Shown in pieces: positions 1 through 11,972 of a stretch of 11,972 nt of DNA (its first letter is position 1; every line of letters begins with the position of its first letter). A program made the position numbers and the translations under genes. Under the pieces are notes generated by a model that made no database searches, was not told where the DNA came from, and was given only the letters and a program-made list of their open reading frames with translations. The DNA comes from a virus. Taxonomy: Duplodnaviria > Heunggongvirae > Uroviricota > Caudoviricetes. Location: the IMG/VR virus record IMGVR_UViG_2713896773_000004, positions 1 through 11,972 of that record. One strand, given 5' to 3'.

Positions 1-29
1 TTTGAATAACTGAATAAGGTAATAAAACA

Positions 30-494
30 ATGACTCAACATATTGGCGTGAAGCTCATCAATGCTTACCCGATGACCCGTCTGGCATATAACGACTTTCG
101 TGGTTGGGAGTTACCAAGTGACGAAAACGGAAGTGATGAAGGTTATCTCGTCGAGTATCTGGATGGCGGAAAGCCAAACACCGATCGCTTCAACGGGTAT
201 GTGAGCTGGAGTCCGAAAGATGTGTTCGACAAAGCCTACCGACCAGTGGCGGGGCTTAGCTTCGGACTGGCTGTCGAAGCCCTGAAATCAGGCAAGCGTG
301 TCACCCGCGCAGGCTGGAACGGCAAGGGCCTGTGGCTTGAGCTGGTCCAGCAGTCGCCATCTGTGGACCTGCCGTACATTCGTTTAATTTATCCTGTGCC
401 GGGCAATGGTGCTATGCCATACCCAAATGGCGCTCGCGTGCCTTGGGCACCAAGCCAAACCGACGTCTTGGCTGATGACTGGCAAATTCTCTAA
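30..494 (+). CDS. Two-domain phage accessory protein; C-terminal DUF2829-like (Tad2-like) domain, N-terminal uncharacterised domain
   Basis: 154-aa ORF with ATG at 30 downstream of AAGG. C-terminal half has the motif series FGLAVEALKSGKRVTRAGWNGKG ... VPWAPSQTDVLADDWQIL, which I recognise from memory as the DUF2829 pattern (FGEAL.ALK.GK.V.R.GWNGK ... PW..SQ.D.LA.DW). N-terminal half (GYLVEYLDG ... YVSWSPKDVFDKAY) looks like a separate domain. No search was run. Confidence 0.55.
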   Translation: MTQHIGVKLINAYPMTRLAYNDFRGWELPSDENGSDEGYLVEYLDGGKPNTDRFNGYVSWSPKDVFDKAYRPVAGLSFGLAVEALKSGKRVTRAGWNGKGLWLELVQQSPSVDLPYIRLIYPVPGNGAMPYPNGARVPWAPSQTDVLADDWQIL

Positions 495-517
495 ACCAGT
501 TGCTTGGGGGGTGGTCT

Positions 518-727
518 ATGCGAGATGACGATTTTCACCATGTGGGCGATGGCCGCGGTAAGCGCCGAGTGTTCGTTAACGGCAACGAGGTCAAGCGCTG
601 CGTATGGGCGGATGTTAAGCGAGGAATAGCATGCTTCTACCCATACCCCATTCGGGTCCATAAGCGAAAGCGCGATGAAGTCTATACCCGCAAACTGCGC
701 GGCGTAATAACCGTCGAATTTATCTAA
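518..727 (+). CDS. Small basic hypothetical phage protein (about 69 aa)
   Basis: ORF in the track as 500..727 (TTG start). I prefer the in-frame ATG at 518, which follows a G-rich Shine-Dalgarno-like run GGGGGGTGG (505-513). Lys/Arg-rich (KRKRDEVYTRKLRG). No family recognised. Followed directly by a terminator. Confidence 0.45.
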   Translation: MRDDDFHHVGDGRGKRRVFVNGNEVKRCVWADVKRGIACFYPYPIRVHKRKRDEVYTRKLRGVITVEFI

Positions 728-728
728 C

Positions 729-753
729 AGGCTGCCTTCGGGTGGCCTTTTTT
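729..753 (+). terminator. Rho-independent terminator (UUCG tetraloop hairpin plus T6)
   Basis: AGGCUGCC-UUCG-GGUGGCCU forms an 8-bp stem with two G-U wobbles, followed by TTTTTT, immediately after the stop at 725-727. Confidence 0.6.
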
Positions 754-834
754 ATGCCTGCCGCTGAGCGGATGCGACGCGGTGACCGGGTCGGATGACC
801 TATTACCAATGGCCGGAAGGCTGGAGCAAAAACA

Positions 835-1587
835 ATGAAACTGAAACTTGATGCTAACGGAAATGTGGTCGTTGAAAACGGTATGCCTGTGTACATCCAT
901 GATGATGGCAAAGAAATCCCGTTCGACGCAGCCGCAGCGATGACCAAAATCACCTCCCTGAATGGTGAAGCTAAAACTCACCGTGAAGCGAAGGAGGCGG
1001 CGGAAGCCAGTCTCGCGAAATTCTCTGGCATCACCGATCCGACCAAGGCGCTCGAAGCCCTGGAGATGATGACCAAAATCGACCAGAAAAAACTGATCGA
1101 CGCTGGCGCTGTTGACCAGGTTAAGGCTGAGATTACCAAGGTATTCCAGCAGCAGCTGGATGAAGCGAACGGCAAGACCAAACAGCTCGAAAGCCAGCTC
1201 TACGACGAGATGATCGGCGGGCGCTTCGGTGGCTCCAAATTCATTTCAGAGAAGATGGCGATCCCGGCTGAGTTCGTGCGTTCCCACTTCGGTCAGAACT
1301 TCAAAATCGAAGACGGCAAAGTCGTGGCGTACGACGGGCAGGGCAACAAGGTGTTCTCTCGCACCAAGCCAGGCGAGTTAGCCAGCTTTGATGAGGCCCT
1401 GGAGTCTCTGGTCGAGTCGCATCCGCAGAAAGATTACATCCTCAAAGCGTCCGGTAACAGCGGCGGCGGTTCTCACCAGTCGCAGCACCAGGCCGGGCAA
1501 AAAACCATGAAACGCGATGCGTTTGATTCCCTGGATAACGCTGGCAAGCAAGCAGCGCTGAAAGACGGCGTCAGCATCGTCGATTAA
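835..1587 (+). CDS. Putative capsid scaffolding protein
   Basis: 250-aa ORF with AGGCTGGAG upstream. Charged, Ala/Lys/Glu-rich, predicted helical/coiled-coil composition, Gly/Ser/Gln-rich linker near the C-terminus. Sits immediately upstream of the major capsid gene with a 17-nt gap, the usual scaffold position. Confidence 0.55.
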   Translation: MKLKLDANGNVVVENGMPVYIHDDGKEIPFDAAAAMTKITSLNGEAKTHREAKEAAEASLAKFSGITDPTKALEALEMMTKIDQKKLIDAGAVDQVKAEITKVFQQQLDEANGKTKQLESQLYDEMIGGRFGGSKFISEKMAIPAEFVRSHFGQNFKIEDGKVVAYDGQGNKVFSRTKPGELASFDEALESLVESHPQKDYILKASGNSGGGSHQSQHQAGQKTMKRDAFDSLDNAGKQAALKDGVSIVD

Positions 1588-1604
1588 ATCGAAAGGAGCC
1601 ATAA

Positions 1605-2744
1605 ATGGCAGGCAATACCCTTACTGGTCTGATCCCGACCATCTATACCGCGCTGTACGTAGTGTCCCGCGAGCAAACTGGTTTTATTCCTGCGGTGGCG
1701 CGTGACGCGAAAGCGGATGCTGCTGCAAAAGACCAGACCGTACGTGCGCCAGTCGCACCTGCAGCCACCACTGAAGATATTGTCCCTGGACCTTCAGCGC
1801 CTAATTCTGGCGACCAGACCATCGGTGGTGTGGATGTCAAAATCACCAAATCCAAAATGGCCCCGGTGAAATGGAATGGTGAAGAGCAATTGGCTCTGGG
1901 CCCGGCTGGTACCTACAACACCATCCTGGCTGACCAGTTCAAGCAGGCTTTCCGTGCGCTGGCGAACGAAGTGGATGCGGATCTCGCTGCGCTGTACCTC
2001 AACTCCTCCCGCGCTGTTGGCGCGCCAAAGAATACCCCGTTCAGCATCAAAGACGATCTGACTGATGCTGCGTTGGCGCGTCAAATCCTGACCGATAACG
2101 GTGCGCCGACTACTGATTTGCGTATGGTGCTGGGTGGCGAAGCGATGGCATCCATCCGTGGTAAACAGGCTGTACTCTTCAAAGCGAACGAAGCGGGAAC
2201 CGACCAACTGCTGCGTGAAGGTGTTATCGGTCGCATCATGGGCTTCAACCTCCACGAATCCTTCAGCATCAAGCGTACCGCGAAAAGCGCTGCTGCTGGC
2301 TATAAGGTCAATGGCGCGAAGAAAGAGGGCGATATCATCATCGCTATCTCTGCTGGCACCGGCGGTATTGCTGCAGGTACTGCGGTGAAGTTCGCCGGTG
2401 ATGACAATCAGTATCTGGTCGTTGCGGCTACGTCTTCCACTATCACTATTAGCGCGCCGGGCCTCCGTCAGGATCTGGCAGACCAGGCTGATGTCACTGT
2501 GTTGAGCGAATTTGTACCGAACATGGCGTTTGACCGCGGGGCATTCCTGCTGGCCAGCCGTACCCCGGCGATGCCTGAAGGTGGCGATACTGCTGATGAC
2601 GTCATGAATGTGACCGACCCGGTATCTGGCATCACCTTCCAGGTGGCGCTGTACCGCCAGTACCGTCAGGTGCGTTATGAAGTGGGCCTGGCATGGGGTG
2701 TGGCTGCTGTGGCGCCACGTCATTCCGCCATCATCATGGGTTAA
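1605..2744 (+). CDS. Major capsid (coat) protein, P22 coat-like by motif resemblance
   Basis: 379-aa ORF with strong RBS AAGGAG about 8 nt upstream. Position after the scaffold gene and before connector genes. Segments GDIIIAISAGTGGIAAGTAVKFAGDDNQYLVV and the C-terminal GLAWGVAAVAPRHSAI resemble motifs I recall from P22 gp5-type coat proteins. Followed by a hairpin terminator/attenuator, typical of highly expressed capsid genes. Confidence 0.65.
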   Translation: MAGNTLTGLIPTIYTALYVVSREQTGFIPAVARDAKADAAAKDQTVRAPVAPAATTEDIVPGPSAPNSGDQTIGGVDVKITKSKMAPVKWNGEEQLALGPAGTYNTILADQFKQAFRALANEVDADLAALYLNSSRAVGAPKNTPFSIKDDLTDAALARQILTDNGAPTTDLRMVLGGEAMASIRGKQAVLFKANEAGTDQLLREGVIGRIMGFNLHESFSIKRTAKSAAAGYKVNGAKKEGDIIIAISAGTGGIAAGTAVKFAGDDNQYLVVAATSSTITISAPGLRQDLADQADVTVLSEFVPNMAFDRGAFLLASRTPAMPEGGDTADDVMNVTDPVSGITFQVALYRQYRQVRYEVGLAWGVAAVAPRHSAIIMG

Positions 2745-2748
2745 CCCA

Positions 2749-2770
2749 GGGGGCTTCGGCCCCTTTGTTT
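2749..2770 (+). terminator. Rho-independent terminator/attenuator after the capsid gene
   Basis: GGGGC-UUCG-GCCCC hairpin (2750-2763) followed by TTTGTTTT. Located between the capsid stop (2744) and the next RBS (AGGAGG, 2773-2778). Confidence 0.55.
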
Positions 2771-2782
2771 TCAGGAGGCCCA

Positions 2783-2983
2783 ATGGCCGGATTAACCAAA
2801 GAGCAGAGCGCGCAGCGTGAGGCTGAAAAGCTTGCCGCGCAGAACGGCGCTGAACAAACAGGTATTGAGCTGGTGGCTATGATGCGAGATACCCCGGAGT
2901 TCCCCGGCGGTCCGCTGAGCGCTGAGGTTCACCCTGACGAAGTCGATAACTGGCTGGCGCTGGACTGGCGACTGGAGGAGTAA
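2783..2983 (+). CDS. Small hypothetical head-module protein (66 aa)
   Basis: ORF track gives 2693..2983, but that start overlaps the capsid gene and its terminator. The in-frame ATG at 2783 has a consensus AGGAGG RBS 5 nt upstream. Acidic protein, no family recognised. Confidence 0.55.
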   Translation: MAGLTKEQSAQREAEKLAAQNGAEQTGIELVAMMRDTPEFPGGPLSAEVHPDEVDNWLALDWRLEE

Positions 2984-2985
2984 CT

Positions 2986-3297
2986 GTGAGCGATAAAGAT
3001 ATTGAGCAGGAAATTCAGGCCAAAGGCTTGAACGCGCCGCGCGTTACGCTGGGCGAGTTGAAGGCGAATATTAAGCATGCCGAGATCGTGAAGCACGTAT
3101 CCGTCACCGGGCAGGTGCTTCGCTGGGCGGTCATCACCACTCAAAACGGATTCGCAGTAACAGGGAATCCGTCGTGCTCAGTTTCCTCCGCTAACGACAA
3201 CGCTGAAATTGGCGAGAAAATTGCTATTGAGAACGCCGAAAGCGAGTTGTGGGCGTTGATGGGATATGCGTTAAAGCAGAAGCTTTTCGAAGCCTGA
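2986..3297 (+). CDS. Gp49-like small phage protein (PF13876-like pattern), function unknown
   Basis: 103-aa ORF with GTG start at 2986 preceded by GGAGGAG. Pattern TLGELKANI ... VTGQVLRWAVITTQNGFAVTGNPSCSVSSANDNAEIGEKIAIENAESELWALMGYALK matches my memory of the gp49/gp66-type small phage protein family. Not verified by search. Confidence 0.45.
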   Translation: MSDKDIEQEIQAKGLNAPRVTLGELKANIKHAEIVKHVSVTGQVLRWAVITTQNGFAVTGNPSCSVSSANDNAEIGEKIAIENAESELWALMGYALKQKLFEA

Positions 3298-3310
3298 GAG
3301 GAGCTCTGAG

Positions 3311-3793
3311 ATGATTAATGCCGATCCCCATTCGTCTGACTTCAACAGCTATGCCAGCGTTGGTGATCTGCGCGCGTTCGCTGCGGGGCGCGGATACACC
3401 ATCCCTGCTGAAGATGGCGAATGCAGCCAGATGCTGATGCAGGCAATGGACTTTCTGGAAGGGAAGGCCTGGCGCGGTCAGCGTTCCAGCGCATCACAGC
3501 CTCTATCCTGGCCGCGTTCCGGCGTGCGCTTCGATGGTGTTGACCTGTCGAATGATGCGATTCCACAGCGCCTGATTGATGCTCAATGTCGCCTGGCCAT
3601 CGAATCGCAGGAGATTGACCTCACCCCGTCGGTCGCTGGCGGTGGGGCGGTTACGATGGAGCGCGTCGAGGGTGCGGTAACAGTCCAGTATGAGCCGGGA
3701 ACGAATAAAGCTTCTCCGTCATTCCCATGGTTCTATTCCGCACTGCGCGGGCTTGTAGTGGGCGGCAACCAGGTCCGGGTCGAAAGGGGGTAG
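3311..3793 (+). CDS. Putative head-tail connector / adaptor protein
   Basis: 160-aa ORF with GAGGAG RBS. First of four tightly packed small genes between the capsid and major tail genes, the canonical siphovirus connector/neck block. Assignment is by position and size, not by recognised homology. Confidence 0.4.
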   Translation: MINADPHSSDFNSYASVGDLRAFAAGRGYTIPAEDGECSQMLMQAMDFLEGKAWRGQRSSASQPLSWPRSGVRFDGVDLSNDAIPQRLIDAQCRLAIESQEIDLTPSVAGGGAVTMERVEGAVTVQYEPGTNKASPSFPWFYSALRGLVVGGNQVRVERG

Positions 3794-3794
3794 C

Positions 3795-4148
3795 ATGGCA
3801 ATCGACTATCGCCGCATGCGCGCGACCGCGACCCGACTGCTGACCGAGAACGGGAAGGCATATCAGCTTACCCGCGGCGGCGGCACCATCCGTGACCAGT
3901 TCGGCAAAGAGGTCACCACCCCGGCCATTACCGCGACCGTAACCGGTGTTATCACCGAATACTCCTCCCGCGAAATCGACGGTTCCCTGATCGCCACCGG
4001 CGACAAGAAGCTGGCGGCCACTTTCGAGACGGAAGTGCGCATCGATGACCGCATCGAAATCGACAGCAAAAAGTGGCGCGTGGTACAGCCGAATCCGGTT
4101 AAGCCTGCCGATGTGCTGATCTCCTACAACATCCAGCTGAGGGCGTAA
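3795..4148 (+). CDS. Putative head-tail joining / head closure protein
   Basis: 117-aa ORF starting 2 nt after the previous stop (translational coupling), GGGGG upstream. Position and size fit a head-tail joining protein. Confidence 0.4.
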   Translation: MAIDYRRMRATATRLLTENGKAYQLTRGGGTIRDQFGKEVTTPAITATVTGVITEYSSREIDGSLIATGDKKLAATFETEVRIDDRIEIDSKKWRVVQPNPVKPADVLISYNIQLRA

Positions 4149-4150
4149 CT

Positions 4151-4750
4151 ATGGTGGGGTCTGTTAATCAGCCGTTCCTGGCTGCCATTCAGCTGTTCGT
4201 GGATGGCTCGAAGCAGGAGATGGACGAGGTGGTGCGCCGGACGGGTATTAAAATCCTCGCTCAACTGGTTGAGATGTCCCCGGTGGGCCAACCGGATATC
4301 TGGCAGGTCAACCAGACCGCGACGGCGTACAACACTGCGGTGCGGGAGCATAACGCGACCCTGCGTGATGACCCGGCTAATCTGACCAAATCAGGACGAC
4401 TTAAGCGCGGCCTGCGCGTCAACGACTCGATGGACATCAAAAAGCCTGAGGGCTATGTCGGCGGGCGGTTTAAAAACAACTGGTATGTGGGCTTTGACAG
4501 CCAGCCAAGCCAATCCAACGACACCCCCGACGCTTCCGGCCAGGGTTCCAACTCCCGCGGTCTGGCAGTGCTCGAGGTGTTCCGGGTAGGGCAGGTCAGC
4601 TCGATTTTCTTCACCAATAATCTGCCATATGCGGCAGCACTGGAGAACGGGCATTCCGGCCAGGCACCCGGCGGCATGGTGGGCATCACTGCGCTGGATG
4701 CCGCGCAGTTGTTCCGTGAGGCAATGAGCGAGGTGCGCAATGGCCAGTGA
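4151..4750 (+). CDS. Putative tail completion / neck protein (HK97 gp10-like position)
   Basis: 199-aa ORF starting 3 nt after the previous stop. Third gene of the connector block. Family assignment by synteny only. Confidence 0.4.
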   Translation: MVGSVNQPFLAAIQLFVDGSKQEMDEVVRRTGIKILAQLVEMSPVGQPDIWQVNQTATAYNTAVREHNATLRDDPANLTKSGRLKRGLRVNDSMDIKKPEGYVGGRFKNNWYVGFDSQPSQSNDTPDASGQGSNSRGLAVLEVFRVGQVSSIFFTNNLPYAAALENGHSGQAPGGMVGITALDAAQLFREAMSEVRNGQ

Positions 4751-5189
4751 CCAGTCAATGCGAATTGCTGAACTACTGGAGAGCCGCATTGCGGTTATCT
4801 GCTTATCGCTTGGGCTGCCCGTAGCCTGGCCGAACATACCGTTTACTCCCCCGGATAGCTCACCATACGGGCGTGTTTATGTTCTGCCGGCACAGACGGT
4901 GGGGCAAGACCTGGAAGGTCAATTGCGAACCTATCAGGGCATCCTGCAGCTCAACATCATTGCGCCAGCAGGCAGCGGCGTGACGCAGGCCAGAGGGCTG
5001 GCTAAATCTGTCGCTGATGCATTTCCTGAAGGGCTTGCGCTGGTGGATGGTGACCTGACTGTTTATATCAATGGGCCGCCGCAGGTGAGACAACCCATCC
5101 AGGACCGGCCAACCTCGGCGTCCAACGGGTCCAGTGGCTCCATAACCTACACCATTCCCGTCAGCATGCAGTACCGCGCTGACTACTGA
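4740..5189 (+). CDS. Putative tail terminator protein (gpU-like position)
   Basis: 149-aa ORF whose ATG (4740) overlaps the previous gene by 11 nt (ATGGCCAGTGA). Last small gene before the major tail gene, the position of the tail terminator in lambda-like clusters. Followed by a terminator. Confidence 0.45.
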   Translation: MASDQSMRIAELLESRIAVICLSLGLPVAWPNIPFTPPDSSPYGRVYVLPAQTVGQDLEGQLRTYQGILQLNIIAPAGSGVTQARGLAKSVADAFPEGLALVDGDLTVYINGPPQVRQPIQDRPTSASNGSSGSITYTIPVSMQYRADY

Positions 5190-5212
5190 CCCGCCAGATG
5201 GCGGGTTTTTTA
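5190..5212 (+). terminator. Rho-independent terminator
   Basis: CCCGCC-AGAU-GGCGGG perfect 6-bp hairpin (5190-5205) followed by TTTTTTATT, immediately after the stop at 5187-5189. Confidence 0.65.
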
Positions 5213-5235
5213 TTACCTAAATTCAGGAGAGTGCT

Positions 5236-6168
5236 ATGGCATTCGCAATCCCTAACGGCTCGCGTGTTAACGTGGCCAAGGCCTATCAGGCTCCCATCAC
5301 CTTTACCGCTGCCTCTAACGCTACTGAATGCGAACTGACTGTTGCATCTGCCGCTGGCATCCTGGCGGGCGACGTAGTGCAGGTGAGCTCCGGCTGGCTA
5401 AAACTCGATAATATGGTGCTGCGCGTTAAATCCGTAGCCGGTACCAAAATCGTGCTGGATTCGTTCGATACCTCTGACACCACCAAATTCCCGGCAGGCA
5501 CTGGCGCGGGCACGCTGCGTAAAATCGACACGTGGATCACGATGCCGCAGGTGATGACCCTCTCCACAGAGGGTGGTGACCAGCAGACCATCAGCGTGCA
5601 GTTCCTTGAAGACGATAAGGCCCGTACCATCCCGACCTTCAAAAACGCCGTGGTGCAGGTCTACACCTTCGCGCACGATCCGCTGCTGGCAATTTACAAG
5701 CGTCTGAGTGAACTTGACGAATCCAGCGACACCACTGCTGTGTGGTTCCATAACCCGCGCGGCAAAGCGGACCGTTATTACTCTGCCAAAGTGTCTTTCC
5801 AGAAGGTGCCTAAGACCGAAATCAACGCCGTGGAAAGCAACGAAGCGCGCATGAACTTCGAATCGGATATGCAGATTTACCCGATCGCCGATTCATCCGT
5901 TACGCCGCTGGCGTTCCTGACTGATCTGCCATCAACCAAAGCAGTTAGTGTTGGAGATGCGCTCGATTTAGCCGTCGTTATGCAAGGCGGCTCAGCCCCT
6001 TACACCTACGTGTGGAAGAAAGGAAGCTCCGCAATTCCGGGCAAAACCGCCTCGACGTTCAACATTTCGTCTGTCTCATCCGGTGATGCTGGCGTTTATA
6101 CCTGCGAAGTCACTGACGCCGCAGGCAAGACCCTAACGTCGGCGGCATGCACCGTTACTGTCAGCTAA
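5236..6168 (+). CDS. Major tail (tube) protein with C-terminal Ig-like domain
   Basis: 310-aa ORF with RBS CAGGAGAG. Sits between the tail terminator and the G/GT chaperone, as lambda V does. C-terminal roughly 80 aa (AVSVGDALDLAVVMQGGSAPYTYVWKKGSS ... SGDAGVYTCEVTDAAGKTLTSAACTVTVS) has the Y-x-C and W hallmarks of an Ig-like domain of the kind appended to many phage tail tube and capsid proteins. Confidence 0.7.
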   Translation: MAFAIPNGSRVNVAKAYQAPITFTAASNATECELTVASAAGILAGDVVQVSSGWLKLDNMVLRVKSVAGTKIVLDSFDTSDTTKFPAGTGAGTLRKIDTWITMPQVMTLSTEGGDQQTISVQFLEDDKARTIPTFKNAVVQVYTFAHDPLLAIYKRLSELDESSDTTAVWFHNPRGKADRYYSAKVSFQKVPKTEINAVESNEARMNFESDMQIYPIADSSVTPLAFLTDLPSTKAVSVGDALDLAVVMQGGSAPYTYVWKKGSSAIPGKTASTFNISSVSSGDAGVYTCEVTDAAGKTLTSAACTVTVS

Positions 6169-6175
6169 CCAATCA

Positions 6176-6200
6176 GGCCCGGTTCGCCGGGCTTTATTTC
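6176..6200 (+). terminator. Rho-independent terminator after the major tail gene
   Basis: GCCCGG-UUCG-CCGGGC hairpin (6177-6192) followed by TTTATTTC. Confidence 0.6.
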
Positions 6201-6384
6201 GCAATGAGTACCGCTGGCGAATTTTCTGTATTCGCATTACCCATCTTTTCAAACTGCGCCTTCACACGCGCTCTCTAACCAAGAACCTTTCAGAAAGCGT
6301 TCCTGAGAACTGCCGTTAGTGCCGGTGGGCCTCTTGGGGCGGCTTTTCTGTGTGAACAGGTTCGCTTTTTAAAAGGTACACACC

Positions 6385-6915
6385 ATGAATCACCCAACCG
6401 TCTCAGTGAATGGGGTCTCCGTCCGCGTTGATGACGAAGGCCGGTACAGTCTTAACGATCTTCATGCGGCAGCGGTAGCTAACGGAGAGGCTACTGAGTC
6501 ACAAAGGCCCAGCGTCTTCCTGCGTAGCGCGCAGATCAAACGCTTCGTTAAAGCGCTAAAATCCAAAGCACTAAAAAGTGCTTCGGAACAAAATCAACCA
6601 CTTAAGGTTATAAAAGGCGGTGATCAAAGTGGTGCATGGGGCATTGAACTTCTGGCAATCCGCTATGCCGCCTGGATAAAGCCAGAGTTTGAGATTGAAG
6701 TGTACGAAGTATTTAGAACAGTGGTGCGTCTTGGTATCAGTGCCATGTCCCGCCTGAACAAAATCGACCACATCATCAACACTGAAACCAAGGCAATTAG
6801 CCAGTGTGCCAGCCAAATGGCCAAGTGGGGTGTTGGTGGTCGCAAGCAGCTATTACATGCAGCCCGGGATCGCGTCGCCGACGAAGTCCAGATGTATCTG
6901 CCCGGCATTAACTAA
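6385..6915 (+). CDS. KilA-N domain protein (moron)
   Basis: 176-aa ORF with AAAAGG upstream. N-terminus VSVNGVSVRVDDEGRYSLNDLHAAA ... SVFLRSAQIKRFVKAL ... GAWGIELLAIRYAAWIKPEFEIEVYEVF matches the KilA-N pattern I recall (V..G..IRV...GRYSLNDLH.A ... F.R ... W..P.F). C-terminal roughly 70 aa unrecognised. Lies in a 786-bp gap between the major tail gene and chaperone G, with terminators on both sides. Confidence 0.6.
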   Translation: MNHPTVSVNGVSVRVDDEGRYSLNDLHAAAVANGEATESQRPSVFLRSAQIKRFVKALKSKALKSASEQNQPLKVIKGGDQSGAWGIELLAIRYAAWIKPEFEIEVYEVFRTVVRLGISAMSRLNKIDHIINTETKAISQCASQMAKWGVGGRKQLLHAARDRVADEVQMYLPGIN

Positions 6916-6916
6916 T

Positions 6917-6941
6917 ACCCGCTACGGCGGGTTTCGTTTTT
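6917..6941 (+). terminator. Rho-independent terminator after the KilA-N gene
   Basis: ACCCGC-UACG-GCGGGU hairpin (6917-6932) followed by TTCGTTTTTCT. Stop codon at 6913-6915. Confidence 0.6.
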
Positions 6942-6954
6942 CTAAGGAACCGAA

Positions 6955-7293
6955 ATGACCAAATTCTCCCTGATCCCGAACCCGACCTTCTCCGTTACCG
7001 CCAGCATCCCGCGCGCTGGTGCTGAAGACGGCAAGCTGACCTTTACCTTCCGCCACAAGACACTGGAAGAGCTGCGCTCTATGGATGAAAAGCTGCAAAA
7101 GTCGGCTGAAGGTAAAAAGGCTGCTATCGAGCCGCAGGCCGACTACCTCATGGAAATTGTCGAGGGGTGGGCACTACCTGACGAGTTCACCCGCGACAAC
7201 GTTATTGTCCTTCTTCAGAACTACCCGCGCGCGTTCGACAGCATCGGTCTGGCCTACACCAAAGAGCTGATGGGTATCCGCGAAAAAAACTAA
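6955..7293 (+). CDS. Tail assembly chaperone (lambda gpG-like)
   Basis: 112-aa ORF with AAGGAA RBS, immediately upstream of the tape measure gene. Ends with a slippery heptamer A_AAA_AAC immediately 5' of its stop codon, and the -1 frame continues open to the tape measure start. Confidence 0.65.
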   Translation: MTKFSLIPNPTFSVTASIPRAGAEDGKLTFTFRHKTLEELRSMDEKLQKSAEGKKAAIEPQADYLMEIVEGWALPDEFTRDNVIVLLQNYPRAFDSIGLAYTKELMGIREKN

Positions 7294-7598
7294 GGCAGGT
7301 CGCCGCAGCGTTGTACACGCCGGGACCGACTCTCGCGGAGTTAGCCGCTTTTGGTTTGACGCCTGAGGACGTGGAGGAAGAGGTGGGTATCCTGCCCTCT
7401 GTGTGGAAGTCTTTCACCATCTTCTCTGCCCTGGCAACCCAGTGGCGCGTCGGCGCGAGCGGGGCGACCGGCCTTGATTACAACGTTCTCCCCTGGATGT
7501 TCGAGTTACACGGGGTTGAGGATGCGGCGGCCTGCATGGCTGACCTTCAAATTATGGAAAGCGAGGCTCTCAAGGTAATGCATAAGGAGACGAAATAA
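6955..7598 (+). CDS. Tail assembly chaperone frameshift fusion (gpGT-like), made by -1 programmed ribosomal frameshift at 7284-7290
   Basis: 0-frame codons GAA AAA AAC TAA place the heptamer A_AAA_AAC at 7284-7290. After a -1 slip, reading continues CTA AGG CAG ... (LRQVAAALYTPGPTLAEL...) to the TAA at 7596-7598. This is the same frame as track ORF 7311..7598, which has no credible independent start (TTG, no RBS). Predicted fusion is about 214 aa. Confidence 0.6.
7284..7290 (+). other. -1 programmed ribosomal frameshift slippery heptamer A_AAA_AAC
   Basis: AAAAAAC in X_XXY_YYZ register relative to the G reading frame, directly upstream of the G stop codon. Confidence 0.6.
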
Positions 7599-10500
7599 TG
7601 ACAGACCAGATCGCCTCGATTACTTTGCGGGCCGATGTTTCTGACCTGAAAACAGCCAGCAACGAACTGGATAAACTCGGCCAGGCGGCGGCCGGTGCTG
7701 TAGATAAAGCAGATGATCTGAATAGCGTGTTTCGCGCTGGCGCTGAATCTGCGAAGCAAGGCAGCGAAGGACTCAAGGAGCAGCAGAACGCGCTCAAAGG
7801 GCTGCTGGAGAATATCGACCCGGTTACCAAGGCCTTAAACCGCCTGGATGAGCAGCAAGAATCGCTGCGGAAATTCCAGGCCAAAGGTTTCCTGGATACC
7901 GATACCTTTCAGGCATACAACAAAATCCTGGATGACACCCGCCTCAAGCTGACCGACACCGGAGAAGCCGCGGCGCGCGCTCAGGCTGAATTAGCCGCTA
8001 CCCAGGCGGCAGAAAAGCAGTCCGCAGCGTTAAAGAACCTTCTTGGATCCATCGACCCGACTATCCGCGCGTTCAATTCGTTGGATGAACAGCACGCACA
8101 GCTGGTGGAACATTTCGAAGCTGGGCGCATTAACGGTGCTCAGTTCGAGCACTTCAACACAATCCTTAACCAGACGCGTGAGCGCCTCTCTGGTGTCGCT
8201 GACGTACTACCAGAGGCGCTATCCCGGCAGGAAGCTGCTGCCCGGCGCGCTGGAATCTCCGTTGGTCAGTACAGCGCAGCAATGCGCACGCTTCCGGCGC
8301 AATTCACCGATATCGCCACGCAGCTGGCTGGCGGTCAGTCGCCGTTCCTGATTCTGCTGCAACAGGGCGGGCAGATTAAAGACCAGTTCGGCTCGGTTCA
8401 GGGGGCGCTGTCCGGCGTCGGCGAATACATCCGCAGCATGGCTGGGATGATTAACCCTACCACAATCGCACTTGGTGGGCTGATTGGCACGATCGGCCTG
8501 CTGGCTGCCGCAGCGTATAACTCCTCGGAGCAATTTGAGCAGGTGGCACGCTCTGTCATCATGATGGGTGGGGCTGGCTTCTCCTCAATGCAGCAGCTCA
8601 ACCAGGCCGCTGAGGAAGTGGCTGGCAAGACGAATACATCGATTAGCTCCACCGTCGATACGCTGGTTACGTTGAACGATACTGGCAAATATACCGCAAG
8701 CCAGATGAAGCAGGTCGCAACGACCATCACCCTCATGGGTAAGGCCGGAAATGATACCAAAGCGGCAATAAGCGACTTCGGAAAGATTGTCAGCGATCCG
8801 GTTAAAGGGCTTGCCAGCCTCAATGAACAATATGGTTTCGTTGATGAAGCCATGATCAAGCACATTATCCAGCTACGTAAGCAGAAGGGTGAGCAGGCGG
8901 CTGTTACCGAAGCTATTGAGCTGTTTGCAGGCGTCATGGCAAAGCGCGCAGAGGAGACCAACAAAGCGACCGATAATATCGGTCAAACGTGGGAAAACCT
9001 TAAAAAGAGCGCTTCTGACACCTTTGGCGATATAGGTATTACCGTGCGCGCATGGGGAAACCAGATCATTGATATTTTCGAACTGGTTAAATCCTCGATC
9101 AAAGACTTGTTCCTCAATATCACCTCTCTGGACGCCAAGTTCACCAGCACCATCGCTGGCTGGGCAGACAAAATCCCGGGTGGCGGTGCGCTGGCTAATT
9201 TCCTCGGCATGGACGTTGAGGCAATGAAAAAGGCTGGAGCGGAGGCGGACAAAGAGATTGAGGCGAACAAAAAACGCTATAACGAGCTTTGGAAGCGCGT
9301 CACTGCGCCTAACGCACAGGCAAACTATGAGGCTGAAGCGCGAGGGTCTAACGTAAAAGGTGATGGAGGAACAAGTCGAGAATCAAGAGACGCAGTCTCG
9401 AAGCTTGCACAAGACTCAGACAAAAAGACCAAAGAGGCAAAAGCCACGCTGGATGCTGGCGATCGCACCCTGGAGAACTACCGCGCCCAGGCCAGAACGT
9501 TAACTGAAACGCTCGAGACCCTCCGACAAACAGGCGAAACCCACGCTAAAAACACCGAGTTCAGTAAACAGCAATCTCGATTTGCTGAATTGGATGAGGC
9601 AGCCAAAACCCGCGCGTTGACTGCTCAGGAAAAATCTTTACTGTCGAGCCGTGAGGCGATTCTGAACGCCGCCAAGGTGGTTGATCAGAAGAACAAGGAA
9701 GTAGAGGCGCAGCAGAAGATTAACGGCCTGGCGCAGCAGGCGAATAAATACGTCACGCAGATGTCGGAAAAAACCGATGCATTGCGTGATAGTGTAGGCC
9801 TCAGCAGTCGGCAAACGCAGCGCATGATGGAAGAGGCACAGCTTCGCCAGGGCTGGCTCAACGGTGGCGGTAAGCTTGATGATGCTGGCTATGAGAAAGA
9901 ACTGGCAGCCCTCAGAAATTATTACGCTGAAGAGGATAAGCTGCGCGGCGATTGGAAATCAGGTGCTATCAGCGGCTGGAATGAGTATCTGGACGCTGCC
10001 ACCAATACCTACGATGCCGTGAAGAATGTTGCCAGCTCCACGCTAACAGGCCTGAGCGACATGCTGACCGAGCTCATGACGACCGGCAAAGCATCGGTCA
10101 AAGAGTTCGGCAAATCCATGCTCAAGATGATCCTGGATGTGACGAACCGCCTCATGGTGGCCTACGCGGTGCAAGCTGCTATGGGATGGATCAGTGGGAG
10201 CGCGGGAGGTGGCGCTACACCCGGCGGTGCTTATGCCAATGCGGCCGCTGGTGTAACGTTCAATGCTAAAGGCGGCGTATACGAATCACCCGGCCTCAGT
10301 AAATATGTGAATGGCGTCTACGATTCTCCTCAATATTTCACATTCCAGGGCGCGTCGAAGTTTGCCAAAGGCGGGGTATTCGCTGAGGCAGGGGCTGAGG
10401 CGATCATGCCGCTGACGCGGGATTCTGCTGGTCGGCTTGGTGTCAGGGCGCAAGGCGGGGGCGGTGCGCAGCCTCAGGTCAATATTGATATCTACGTTGA

Positions 10501-10651
10501 TAACAAGGGCAACACATCATCAAATACGTCCGGAGACGGCAGTGCTGCGGCGCGTGCCTTAGGCAAGGAAATTGAAGCAAAGGTTACGGAGATCCTCGTG
10601 AGGGCCGCTCGGAGTGATGGTTTCCTGGGCAAAACGTTCCAACCCAAATAA
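7598..10651 (+). CDS. H: Tail tape measure protein (lambda gpH homologue)
   Basis: 1017-aa ORF whose ATG overlaps the upstream stop (TAATG), RBS AAGGAGA. Segment [53 protein letters not shown] is near-identical to the lambda gpH segment I recall ([49 protein letters not shown]). Also has hydrophobic Gly-rich segments and a Gly/Ala-rich C-terminus typical of tape measure proteins. Confidence 0.9.
   Translation: [1017 protein letters not shown]
7790..8188 (+). repeat. Intragenic tandem duplication in the tape measure N-terminal region (two diverged copies of about 54 aa, period 79 aa)
   Basis: Residues 65-118 ([54 protein letters not shown]) and 144-197 ([54 protein letters not shown]) align without gaps at about 44% identity. 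Nucleotide copies are diverged, sharing short strings such as ATCGACCC. Confidence 0.7.
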
Positions 10652-10693
10652 GAAACTGCTGTGATTCTGAGATGGGAATATCATCTGCACCTG

Positions 10694-10722
10694 GTTACAG
10701 CGACACATCCCTTGGTTATCAT
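10694..10722 (+). promoter_or_regulatory. Candidate sigma70 promoter for the first island gene
   Basis: GTTACA (10694-10699), 17-bp spacer, TATCAT (10717-10722). Predicted start about 10729, upstream of RBS AAGGGG (10742-10747). Pattern match only. Confidence 0.3.
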
Positions 10723-10753
10723 GAGCTAAACCATGCTAATCAAGGGGATGATA

Positions 10754-11128
10754 ATGAAGGCGCTCAAAATTGGCCTTGCAGGGATTGTTGTTATTTACTT
10801 GCTCATCAATGCCAGTAAATCACAAGAGATAAAAAGCGAAGATATACCTGCGTTTGCTAAAAGTGAGTCAAATGTATGGATAGCTAATACACTGGGCCAG
10901 CCGGGCGCAGACGTCATCAAAAGCTCTACCTACTACCTTAAGCGTGAGATTCCAGAAGAGGATATTGTTTATGGCTATCTTTGTGGAACCATAACAACTG
11001 GCGAAAGATTCTTTACTGAGGTCTCGATCAATAAGCGCAAGCACACGTCTGGCATTTTCAAAAATATGATATTTGATAAACGCAATGCAAAGACGTTTAA
11101 TCAGATCTGGAACACTGAGTGTAAGTAA
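10754..11128 (+). CDS. Hypothetical secreted or membrane-anchored protein with N-terminal signal peptide (cargo island gene A)
   Basis: Track ORF 10733..11128. I prefer ATG 10754 (or 10748), 6 nt after AAGGGG. N-terminus MKALKIGLAGIVVIYLLINA-SKSQ has a basic n-region, hydrophobic core and Ala at the putative cleavage site, with no lipobox Cys. Mature part has two Cys. Local GC is about 40%. No family recognised. Confidence 0.55.
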   Translation: MKALKIGLAGIVVIYLLINASKSQEIKSEDIPAFAKSESNVWIANTLGQPGADVIKSSTYYLKREIPEEDIVYGYLCGTITTGERFFTEVSINKRKHTSGIFKNMIFDKRNAKTFNQIWNTECK

Positions 11129-11149
11129 CCATCAAGATCACCCAACACA

Positions 11150-11175
11150 GCCTCGCATACGCGGGGCTTTTTTAT
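11150..11175 (+). terminator. Rho-independent terminator after island gene A
   Basis: GCCUCGC-AUAC-GCGGGGC hairpin (one G-U wobble) at 11150-11167, followed by TTTTTTAT. Confidence 0.6.
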
Positions 11176-11203
11176 ATCTGTAGCCGAGAGGCAGGAGAAC
11201 GTT

Positions 11204-11461
11204 ATGGAAATGACTGTAGGATTCCCTGAAATGGGTTCGCGATTTGAATCTGTAAGCTTCGATCCAGATTTAGAAATTAAAATGATAAAGACTGTCAGAA
11301 CCAAAATTACAGTTTGCAAGCTTGAGCAAATCAATGCGCCTCATGAACTGGTGTTTATCTATCAGGAGGATTTCAATCCAGGCAGCTCTTTTGCCGAAGT
11401 CGAAGCACGCGCCAAAGAATATGCCAGTAAGGCAATTGCCGGATTGAAAACCCCGGCTTAA
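11204..11461 (+). CDS. Hypothetical small acidic protein (cargo island gene B, 85 aa)
   Basis: ORF with AGGAGA RBS 6 nt upstream of ATG 11204. AT-rich codon usage unlike the structural genes. Its stop codon lies in the loop of a hairpin that can terminate the convergent minus-strand gene. No family recognised. Confidence 0.5.
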   Translation: MEMTVGFPEMGSRFESVSFDPDLEIKMIKTVRTKITVCKLEQINAPHELVFIYQEDFNPGSSFAEVEARAKEYASKAIAGLKTPA

Positions 11462-11467
11462 CCGGGG
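11447..11467 (-). terminator. Candidate rho-independent terminator for minus-strand gene C
   Basis: Plus-strand CCCCGG-CTTAA-CCGGGG (11451-11467). On the minus strand the hairpin is followed by UUUU (complement of AAAA 11447-11450), 8 nt downstream of the gene C stop. The U-tract is short, so strength is uncertain. Confidence 0.4.
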
Positions 11468-11474
11468 CAAAGCA

Positions 11475-11705
11475 TTATTTGATGCGATGGTAGATGTTAT
11501 CAGCCCTGGCGTACAATTTGGATACCGCCTCGGCACGACCTTGCTCTTGCATCGTCATTTTTGATGTATCTCCACCGTAGGCCTTCGTCATATACTCAGT
11601 AACGCGCTTGCGAAAAGCTCCAGCATCACCTGATTCGACAGTGGCAACAGCTAATAAAAACGCTAAGGCTTCATCCTGCTGGTCTTCTTTGTTAAAGCTC
11701 ATCAT
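11475..11705 (-). CDS. Hypothetical small protein encoded antisense to the late operon (cargo island gene C, 76 aa)
   Basis: Minus-strand ORF starting ATGATG (complement of 11700-11705) with AGGAG 3 nt upstream (complement of CTCCT 11709-11713). Protein MMSFNKEDQQDEALAFLLAVATVESGDAG..., no family recognised. It is the only credible minus-strand gene in the window. Confidence 0.55.
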   Translation of the reverse strand: MMSFNKEDQQDEALAFLLAVATVESGDAGAFRKRVTEYMTKAYGGDTSKMTMQEQGRAEAVSKLYARADNIYHRIK

Positions 11706-11753
11706 AAACTCCTGTTATACCGAGGCCATCAGCCGCACCGTCGGCAATTAATG

Positions 11754-11774
11754 CGCCAGTGCCCACCACTGGCG
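11754..11774. repeat. Perfect 8-bp inverted repeat with 5-bp spacer upstream of gene C
   Basis: CGCCAGTG-CCCAC-CACTGGCG, located about 50-70 bp upstream of the gene C start codon on the minus strand. Candidate operator or RNA hairpin. Confidence 0.4.
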
Positions 11775-11834
11775 GGCTGAATCCACAACATAACCAGGTA
11801 TTTTGATTTGTAACATCCTGATATTCAGACAGTA

Positions 11835-11857
11835 GCCACCTTCGGGTGGCTTTTTTT
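11835..11857 (+). terminator. Rho-independent terminator (perfect UUCG tetraloop hairpin plus T7) immediately upstream of gene M
   Basis: GCCACC-UUCG-GGUGGC (11835-11850) followed by TTTTTTT (11851-11857). The RBS GGAG and ATG of the next gene follow within 12 nt. Confidence 0.7.
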
Positions 11858-11868
11858 ATGGAGCAAAT

Positions 11869-11972
11869 ATGGCAGTTGAAACATACAGCTGGCGCTCGCA
11901 GCTCGGTGCTGGGGCGATTGAATATAGTCAAACGGTGCGCGCTGCGCAGTTCGGTGATGGCTATGAGCAGGT
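11869..11972 (+). CDS. M: Minor tail protein M (lambda gpM-like), 5' partial, continues beyond the window
   Basis: ATG at 11869 with GGAG 5 nt upstream. Translation MAVETYSWRSQLGAGAIEYSQTVRAAQFGDGYEQ matches the N-terminal pattern of lambda M as I recall it (MKTFRWKVKPGMDVASVPSVRKVRFGDGYSQ), including the FGDGY motif. Truncated by the window end. Confidence 0.7.
   Translation, partial: MAVETYSWRSQLGAGAIEYSQTVRAAQFGDGYEQ

Follow-up and report, generated by a model that had tools for sequence, protein, structure and literature searches.

A convergent gene pair homologous to the HK97 moron and reverse moron

The stretch of DNA analyzed here (the window) comprises positions 1 to 11,972 of IMG/VR virus record IMGVR_UViG_2713896773_000004 and represents the late region of a temperate siphophage or prophage of enterobacteria, in which a P22-type capsid gene is combined with a lambda-like tail. 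Toward its right end, two small genes converge: gene B (11204 to 11461, plus strand), which lies in the late-operon orientation and encodes 85 amino acids (aa) up to a TAA stop codon at 11459 to 11461, and gene C (11475 to 11702, minus strand), which encodes 75 aa. In the near-identical Escherichia coli prophage L002, the gene for the tape measure protein (TMP) is followed in order by cargo genes, by B and C, and by M, L, and further genes.

Alignment of window positions 11181 to 11873 with 14452 to 15145 of phage HK97 gave 90% nucleotide (nt) identity, and the HK97 record labels the products of this stretch Gp22 "moron product" and Gp23 "reverse moron product" and marks one terminator on the plus strand and one, for gene 23, on the minus strand. 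At the protein level, B shared 93% identity with gp22 and C shared 93 to 95% with gp23. Judged by these identities, the B-C pair is already known: B is the homologue of the HK97 "moron" (gp22) and C that of its "reverse moron" (gp23). The initial annotation regarded a gene reading against the late operon inside a tail gene cluster as unusual; it is a classical reverse moron, annotated in the deposited HK97 record (AF069529/NC_002167; Juhala et al. 2000), with HK022 and ES18 as further cases. Homology to HK97 stopped abruptly at both ends of the cassette, at ∼11181 and 11873 (the left edge is 11149 in the TMP-M context).

For C, an alternative start at 11705 would yield 76 aa. The true start is most likely the second ATG (11702), which is preferred because it has a 6-nt spacing from the Shine-Dalgarno (SD) sequence AGGAG (11713 to 11709), is the sole ATG in most relatives, and is the RefSeq call in L002. 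With this probable correction, the convergent arrangement of B and C and the hairpin at 11451 to 11467 described in the initial annotation were confirmed. Both are real genes under purifying selection. Compared with nine diverged relatives, the ratio of nonsynonymous to synonymous substitution rates (dN/dS) was 0.07 to 0.28 for B and 0.02 to 0.06 for C, and each open reading frame (ORF) was intact at every locus carrying the gene.

AlphaFold2 modeled C with helices at residues 5 to 24, 29 to 42, and 51 to 74 (predicted local distance difference test [pLDDT], 78.7). C is thus predicted to be a soluble, plain three-helix bundle without a membrane segment, a fold that offers no functional clue; its highest 19-residue Kyte-Doolittle window is 1.42, and it has 11 acidic and 11 basic residues. 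The model of B (pLDDT, 46.9) was not usable. No relatives of C were found in Pfam, PHROG, PADLOC, NCBIfam, or PDB. Family searches with B, C, and their distant homologues (Pfam, PHROGs, PADLOC, and NCBIfam) gave nothing usable beyond a weak match of B to phrog_11851, and profile-based PDB sequence searches gave no match. Matches of ∼30 residues to the C profile also occurred in two very long proteins, P0016 (2,118 aa) and P0023 (2,815 aa), in one of them at 22 separate places, which is probably a repetitive coiled-coil artifact. A literature search on the function of HK97 gp22/gp23, "srb," and DUF1327 found nothing relevant.

Transcriptional signals of B and C

The hairpin CCCCGG-CTTAA-CCGGGG (11451 to 11467), followed on the minus strand by UUUU (11450 to 11447), forms a 3′ stem-loop of C with the makeup of an intrinsic terminator. 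Its minimum free energy (MFE) is −14.7 kcal/mol on the minus strand and −12.1 kcal/mol on the plus strand. It escaped the promoter/terminator scan, since the minus-strand T-run is only 4 nt long, and with an estimated ∼0.3 six-pair all-G/C hairpins expected by chance in 12 kb, its presence is only mildly unlikely when taken alone. A G+C-rich hairpin lies 10 to 20 bases past the C stop codon in every lineage, in most cases with UUUU after it on the C strand, and has stems of CCCCGG/CCGGGG, CCCCGA/TCGGGG, GTCCCCGC/GCGGGGAC (as RNA, GUCCCCGC/GCGGGGAC), or, in L028, a locus with C only, ATAGCC/GGCTAT. That the structure is kept while the stem sequence differs across lineages (compensatory changes) shows that the hairpin is real, and the HK97 record annotates its equivalent as the gene 23 terminator. 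On this comparative evidence, the hairpin is the terminator of C, in line with the initial suggestion that it can terminate this gene, and the final codons of B merely overlap it.

The overlap places the TAA of B within the hairpin loop, as first noted. This holds for the window and not as a conserved property: in HK97, CAA replaces the TAA, which extends gp22 to 120 aa and makes it overlap gp23 by ∼120 nt (L001, 4024 to 4524); in the L003/L018 lineage, B stops a few bases past the hairpin; and in L025, a TAG lies at the loop/stem edge. HK97 gp23 also carries an 11-aa C-terminal extension through the terminator hairpin, resulting from a 2-bp insertion. The gp22 and gp23 extensions are missing from most relatives and may be recent or nonfunctional.

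Two plus-strand intrinsic terminators lie on either side of the pair. The left one (11149 to 11175; an 8-pair stem, then TTTTTT; MFE, −14.2 kcal/mol) is 28 nt 5′ of the B ATG and is kept, with a varying loop, in all TMP-M-context loci and in L004; the sequence farther upstream differs. From its position, it is taken to end a preceding 131-aa cargo gene and to shield B from transcription that is not antiterminated. The right one, a strong terminator (stem at 11834 to 11851 and T-run to 11858; MFE, −12.7 kcal/mol), forms the right edge of the cassette just before a lambda-M-like tail gene (ATG at 11870). It is kept in all contexts, including the C-only locus L028, with compensatory changes between stems (GCCACC/GGTGGC, GCCGC/GCGGC, and GGCGAC/GTCGCC), and a plus-strand terminator at this edge is annotated in HK97 and ES18.

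No promoter-like site was called upstream of B by the promoter/terminator scan. Homology to HK97 begins only 23 nt ahead of the ATG, at about the conserved left boundary and ribosome-binding region GCCGAGAGGCAGGAG (11183 to 11197, plus strand), and in L025, B starts ∼20 nt after the preceding late gene. Because B has no promoter of its own and terminators lie on both sides, it is probably transcribed only within the late operon and, in the window, only by antiterminated polymerase.

Mobility, composition, and linkage of the cassette

The cassette occupies at least four insertion points: between the TMP and 131-aa cargo genes and the M-like gene (the window and L002); between tail genes I and J (HK97, L003, L062, and L063); after the P22-type antirepressor gene in the arc/ant region (L004); and between the lysis genes and the HNH/terminase genes (L025 to L027), where protein identity to the window is 49% for C and 42% for B. 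The G+C content of the module is 46.3% (B, 42%; C, 46.5%), compared with 55.5% over positions 1 to 10651 and 57% in the next tail gene. Phage morons have been defined as extra DNA between otherwise adjacent genes, with deviant composition and with a promoter and terminator of their own that allow expression from the repressed prophage (Juhala/Hendrix definition, summarized in PMC3594210). The B-C cassette is such extra DNA with a differing base composition; C has a terminator and, at a fixed distance in all lineages, a −10-like TAnnnT within a putative promoter that is weak by consensus, and B is without a promoter. These insertion points together with the low G+C content mark B-C as a mobile accessory cassette, a moron in the classical sense.

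Within the cassette, B and C are closely linked. All 25 loci first recovered with C have a convergent B beside it, ∼12 to 16 nt apart, and a convergent B is also present in C lineages at 45 to 49% identity. Lineages of distant homologues that retain B beside C are P0017/L025 with L053 to L057, P0020/L032 with L059, P0027, P0028, and P0002. Furthermore, every B-family gene with downstream DNA in the data has a convergent reverse partner.

The 131-aa gene that precedes the cassette (10733 to 11128, plus strand) resembles a separate forward moron, with a G+C content of 40%, a promoter-like site at 10694 to 10722, and the terminator at 11149 to 11175 as its own. Its product has a hydrophobic N-terminal segment (Kyte-Doolittle, 2.19), and family searches with it gave no match. 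Relatives hold other genes at this position, such as a zinc-ribbon gene in L002.

Putative promoter and structured leader of gene C

A putative C promoter (11787 to 11825, minus strand) combines the −10 hexamer TATGTT (11792 to 11787) with the −35 hexamer GTTACA (11814 to 11809) across a 16-nt spacer, and a conserved upstream element, AATATCAGG (11825 to 11817, minus strand), lies beside the plus-strand terminator. In every lineage, a TAnnnT hexamer is located exactly 6 nt 5′ of an invariant TCAGCC, and from this fixed distance the transcription start of C is predicted at ∼11781/11780. A CTGAT-N5-ATCAG palindrome (window 11817 to 11834, minus strand) was also observed between the plus-strand terminator and the C promoter; AATATCAGG is part of it in many lineages, and it is perfect in L015 and L061 to L064 and degenerate in the window.

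The predicted 5′ leader of the C mRNA is 79 nt long (11703 to 11781, minus strand) and contains, ahead of C, the SD sequence and three helices. P1 pairs 11780 to 11775 with 11734 to 11729 (UCAGCC/GGCUGA); P2, a hairpin of 8 to 9 bp, pairs 11774 to 11767 with 11761 to 11754; and P3 pairs 11744 to 11738 with 11725 to 11720, its arms flanking the 3′ arm of P1 and enclosing AUGGCUGAUUA. The covariance model R1 matched the window at 11702 to 11781 (minus strand) with 69.9 bits. In a MAFFT alignment of 24 diverse copies, P2 was 92% paired, with double-sided changes in 5 of its 8 pairs. In an alignment of 99 copies, which was built by fitting to the model and hence leans towards it by construction, P2 was 96.9% paired (double changes in 6 of 8 pairs) and P3 82.6% paired (5 of 6 pairs). 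The observed covariation score was reached by none of 500 shuffles, and slid controls paired at 36 to 49%, compared with 90.4%. P2 and P3 are therefore supported by covariation in these alignments. P1 is invariant in sequence, which makes covariation uninformative for it, and since P1 crosses P3, the helices would either form a pseudoknot or belong to two alternative structures. The G-U pairs assign the structure to the C-sense (minus) strand, the only one on which they can form. Thermodynamics alone gives the fold no support: single-sequence folding of the window leader was no better than that of shuffled sequences (z = −0.52), and the MFE structure differed from the comparative one. The −10 element, leader, and terminator of C are kept even in C-only loci.

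Three other features considered for the leader were rejected. An upstream mini-ORF (AUG GCU GAU UAC CUC UGA) is not conserved in length or stop codon and has no AUG in the window; pairing of the leader 5′ arm with the SD sequence as a general switch proved lineage specific; and by-eye inspection for σ54 and σ28 motifs found no fit. Rfam 15 gave only chance-level matches (E value, ≥1) for the leader and hairpin in the window and in a canonical copy, Rfam searches at gathering thresholds in nine loci returned no leader match and only an unrelated sar RNA, and no paper containing the leader sequence was found in the literature.

The leader precedes unrelated cargo genes in other phages

The leader is not private to C; in phages of the HK97, HK022, ES18, and mEp types, it heads dozens of small, unrelated ORFs. 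An exact-pattern scan of viral contigs identified at least 120 loci; five chance matches within ordinary genes were dropped after a covariance-model search. At least 26 (about 26 to 30) unrelated cargo families follow the leader, 26 of them among 106 ORFs of the matches listed. Among these matches, the cargo proteins are mostly 63 to 103 aa long, with two families of 175 to 211 aa, and only a handful are C-like; one has a DUF1883 domain, one has a zinc ribbon, and nearly all others are without an assigned function. Further leader loci include L187 (1576 to 1656), L188 (1578 to 1656), L001 (4524 to 4603), and ∼95 more. Named phages with the leader are HK97, HK022 (before gp23, "srb"), ES18 (before gene 25), HK633, mEp213, mEp043, and SPN3UB, and it is present, unannotated, in 146 of 5,426 complete E. 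coli genomes (about 3%). Five single contigs (L155, L084, L078, L121, and L079) carry two leader copies, apart from one another and with different cargo genes.

Many leader-headed cargo genes face a small partner gene in the late direction. The motif preceding B (GCCGARAGGCRGGAG; ≤3 mismatches) was found at the partner-gene start in 37 of 89 other cassettes, compared with 72 of 2,000 random segments. The partner product often begins with MTLEQRVEALE, followed by a variable C terminus and sometimes a fused B-like domain; in ES18, the partner is a DUF1327 protein. Partner-gene starts of this motif type, with the GCCGAGAGGCAGGAG boundary, were seen in L068, L070, L072, L097, L105, L152, and others. 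Conserved flanks around differing genes suggest polymorphic gene pairs that are exchanged as two-gene cassettes. In two loci, a B-family gene after the TMP gene faces a reverse gene that is either unrelated to C (176 aa, phrog_18578; L060, 3001 to 3857) or very distantly C-like (100 aa, phrog_25324; L061, 3001 to 3606), and both use a short leader form without P2.

Tentatively, the C promoter-leader may represent an undescribed class of cis-regulatory RNA at the head of a polymorphic system of cassettes in temperate phages of enterobacteria, a proposal that we put forward with low confidence. Such a class would have the layout TAnnnT −10 element, UCAGCC, P2 hairpin, and P3 around AUGGCUGAUUA, and its 5′ end could base-pair with the P3 loop. 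If the cassettes are interchangeable effector/antidote pairs, the leader could couple their expression to the lysogeny-lysis state, for instance if it is targeted by late antisense transcripts or by some phage or host factor. The shared promoter-leader is a candidate new regulatory RNA and a searchable flag for a large set of uncharacterized prophage accessory genes and their possible late-expressed partners, and together with the cassette organization it is the part of this system most worth following up.

A model of reciprocal expression and its alternatives

From the observed anatomy, coding status, mobility, and linkage of the pair, we infer a scheme of expression timing, antisense silencing, and B-C antagonism in which a mobile cassette combines C, an effector expressed in the lysogen, with B, a late-made partner that relieves the phage's own lytic cycle; we give this model about an even chance of being correct. 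C would be a self-contained minus-strand unit, made up of a weak σ70-type promoter, the 79-nt leader, the SD sequence, the 75-aa protein, and an intrinsic terminator, and would be expressed from the repressed prophage. The view in the initial annotation that C is built for expression while late transcription is off agrees with this anatomy and with a precedent in phage phi80. The late promoter and the antiterminator are located beyond the window. Antiterminated late read-through would yield B, and because transcription through B must then cross 11462 to 11858, antisense to the C ORF, leader, and promoter, it would shut C down through transcriptional interference and RNA duplex formation. With C made in the lysogen and B made late while C is silenced, expression of the two would be reciprocal. 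Every late or B read-through would thus be antisense to C, as initially proposed, and would cover its leader and promoter as well, but this is expected only from antiterminated late transcription. In the lysogen, the hairpin and the terminator at 11149 to 11175 would tend to prevent antisense read-through, which points to insulation rather than antisense production.

By analogy with two experimentally studied systems, C is likely a prophage-expressed effector that most plausibly interferes with other phages, and late-made B would free the lytic cycle of the prophage itself from C. In Pseudomonas phage JBD26, the minus-strand gene tab (83 aa) has its own promoter and converges on and overlaps the late-operon gene atab (83 aa). 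The lysogen makes Tab, which stops incoming phages from assembling tails by acting through the tape measure protein; anti-Tab, a late product, binds and inactivates Tab and so spares the prophage's own cycle (PMC10884400). In phi80, the reverse gene taiEcA interrupts the Q-dependent late operon beside atiEcA in a "noncontiguous operon," and expression of Q lowers the TaiEcA level (He et al. 2024, PMC11364771).

Several findings weigh against this model. C-family genes without B were found in three lineages, between M and L (L028), in non-late contexts (L029 to L031), and downstream of an N-like gene (L033), and B-like domains face other cargo families in L060, L089, L110, L139, L140, and L152. 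In L004, C is 99% identical to that of the window but B only 58%, and such uncoupled divergence does not imply a tight, specific interaction between the two proteins. The C promoter is weak by consensus, with a poor −35 hexamer, and was not called by a strict consensus scan; the CTGAT-N5-ATCAG palindrome suggests some form of regulation and could be an operator. A literature search for data on the expression or phenotype of either gene found none. Comparison of B and C with Tab (JBD26 gp31) and anti-Tab (gp30) showed no similarity (hhalign probability, 0.1 to 1.9%), BLASTP and HMM comparisons with TaiEcA and AtiEcA gave no match, and PADLOC gave none for B, C, or their distant homologues. The corresponding region of L004 (5104 to 5623) is a mosaic junction in which C and the leader are near-identical to those of the window, indicating recombination at or near the shared hairpin.

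B and C could instead be functionally unrelated accessory genes that hitchhike together, their convergent overlap reflecting compaction and the antisense transcription having no regulatory role. The occurrence of C alone, the B-like genes facing unrelated cargo genes, and the uncoupled divergence in L004 would all fit such an arrangement, as would the C-only locus L028, where M ends right at the C terminator, so that an overlap of stop codon and terminator arises without B. We nevertheless consider it rather unlikely, given that the pair keeps its geometry at four or more insertion sites and at protein identities as low as 36 to 49%, that convergent reverse partners accompany every B-family gene with downstream DNA in the data, and that the two studied systems of similar layout are functional pairs.

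The initial annotation drew an analogy to type I toxin-antitoxin systems. In a system of this type, C would be a toxin whose mRNA is held in check by a plus-strand antisense small RNA ending at 11834 to 11858. This analogy fails, and such a system is very improbable here. The scan called no plus-strand promoter-like site within 11475 to 11834, and a candidate AT-rich stretch lacks conservation between lineages. Nor is C a short hydrophobic peptide, having a Kyte-Doolittle maximum of 1.42 and a soluble three-helix model, and because C-family genes occur without B in three lineages, C needs no B to be tolerated. The two features that would suit a type I system are the strong plus-strand terminator just beyond the C promoter, conserved in every cassette, and the conserved structured leader on the C mRNA; but the same leader and terminator precede about 26 to 30 unrelated ORF families, including those of 175 to 211 aa, and the G-U pairs put the structure on the C-sense strand only. 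Equally improbable is a type II-like protein addiction module in which a labile antitoxin B and a stable toxin C stabilize the prophage, since, although two small adjacent genes are mobile as a unit and defense/counterdefense pairs have been likened to addiction modules (Patel et al. 2024, PMC10884400), B and C are convergent and not cotranscribed, a promoterless B would be absent from the lysogen, precisely where an antitoxin has to act, searches of Pfam, NCBIfam, and PADLOC matched no toxin or antitoxin family, and C-only loci exist.

Comparison with known systems

The closest known counterparts of B-C are its direct homologues, HK97 gp22/gp23, which share the hairpin, the plus-strand terminator, and the leader. 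The HK97 pair differs in its insertion point, between I and J rather than between TMP and M, in the 120-aa gp22 that results from CAA, and in the 11-aa tail of gp23. HK022 gp22/gp23 ("srb") and ES18 gp24/gp25 have the same promoter-leader and layout with different proteins.

Type I toxin-antitoxin systems such as hok/sok, and excludons, resemble B-C in that overlapping transcription from opposite strands is possible and the mRNA leader is structured. Unlike hok/sok-type systems, B-C lacks both a dedicated antisense RNA gene and a membrane-peptide toxin, and C is tolerated where B is absent.

With Tab/anti-Tab, the match in layout is nearly exact: in both, a reverse gene of ∼80 codons, with a promoter of its own that is putative in the case of C, converges on a promoterless late gene of ∼80 codons. 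The differences are that tab sits between the terminase genes, that the JBD26 pair overlaps by 47 nt, and that C also exists without B. Tai/Ati likewise has a reverse prophage gene that interrupts the late operon beside a small counter-gene in the late direction, but TaiEcA, at 204 aa, is unrelated to C, and the phi80 genes point away from each other, with overlapping 5′ ends, rather than converging. In phi80, late transcription lowers the reverse gene product, in essence the kind of control put forward in the initial annotation. The tai region of phi80 was also checked for a C-type leader, and the leader motif was not there. With moderate confidence, and by analogy of organization, we suggest that B-C works like Tab/anti-Tab and Tai/Ati and is not a member of either family. 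A moron of the model phage HK97 that has been listed as "function unknown" for 25 years can thereby be placed in an architectural class of prophage defense with late counterdefense.

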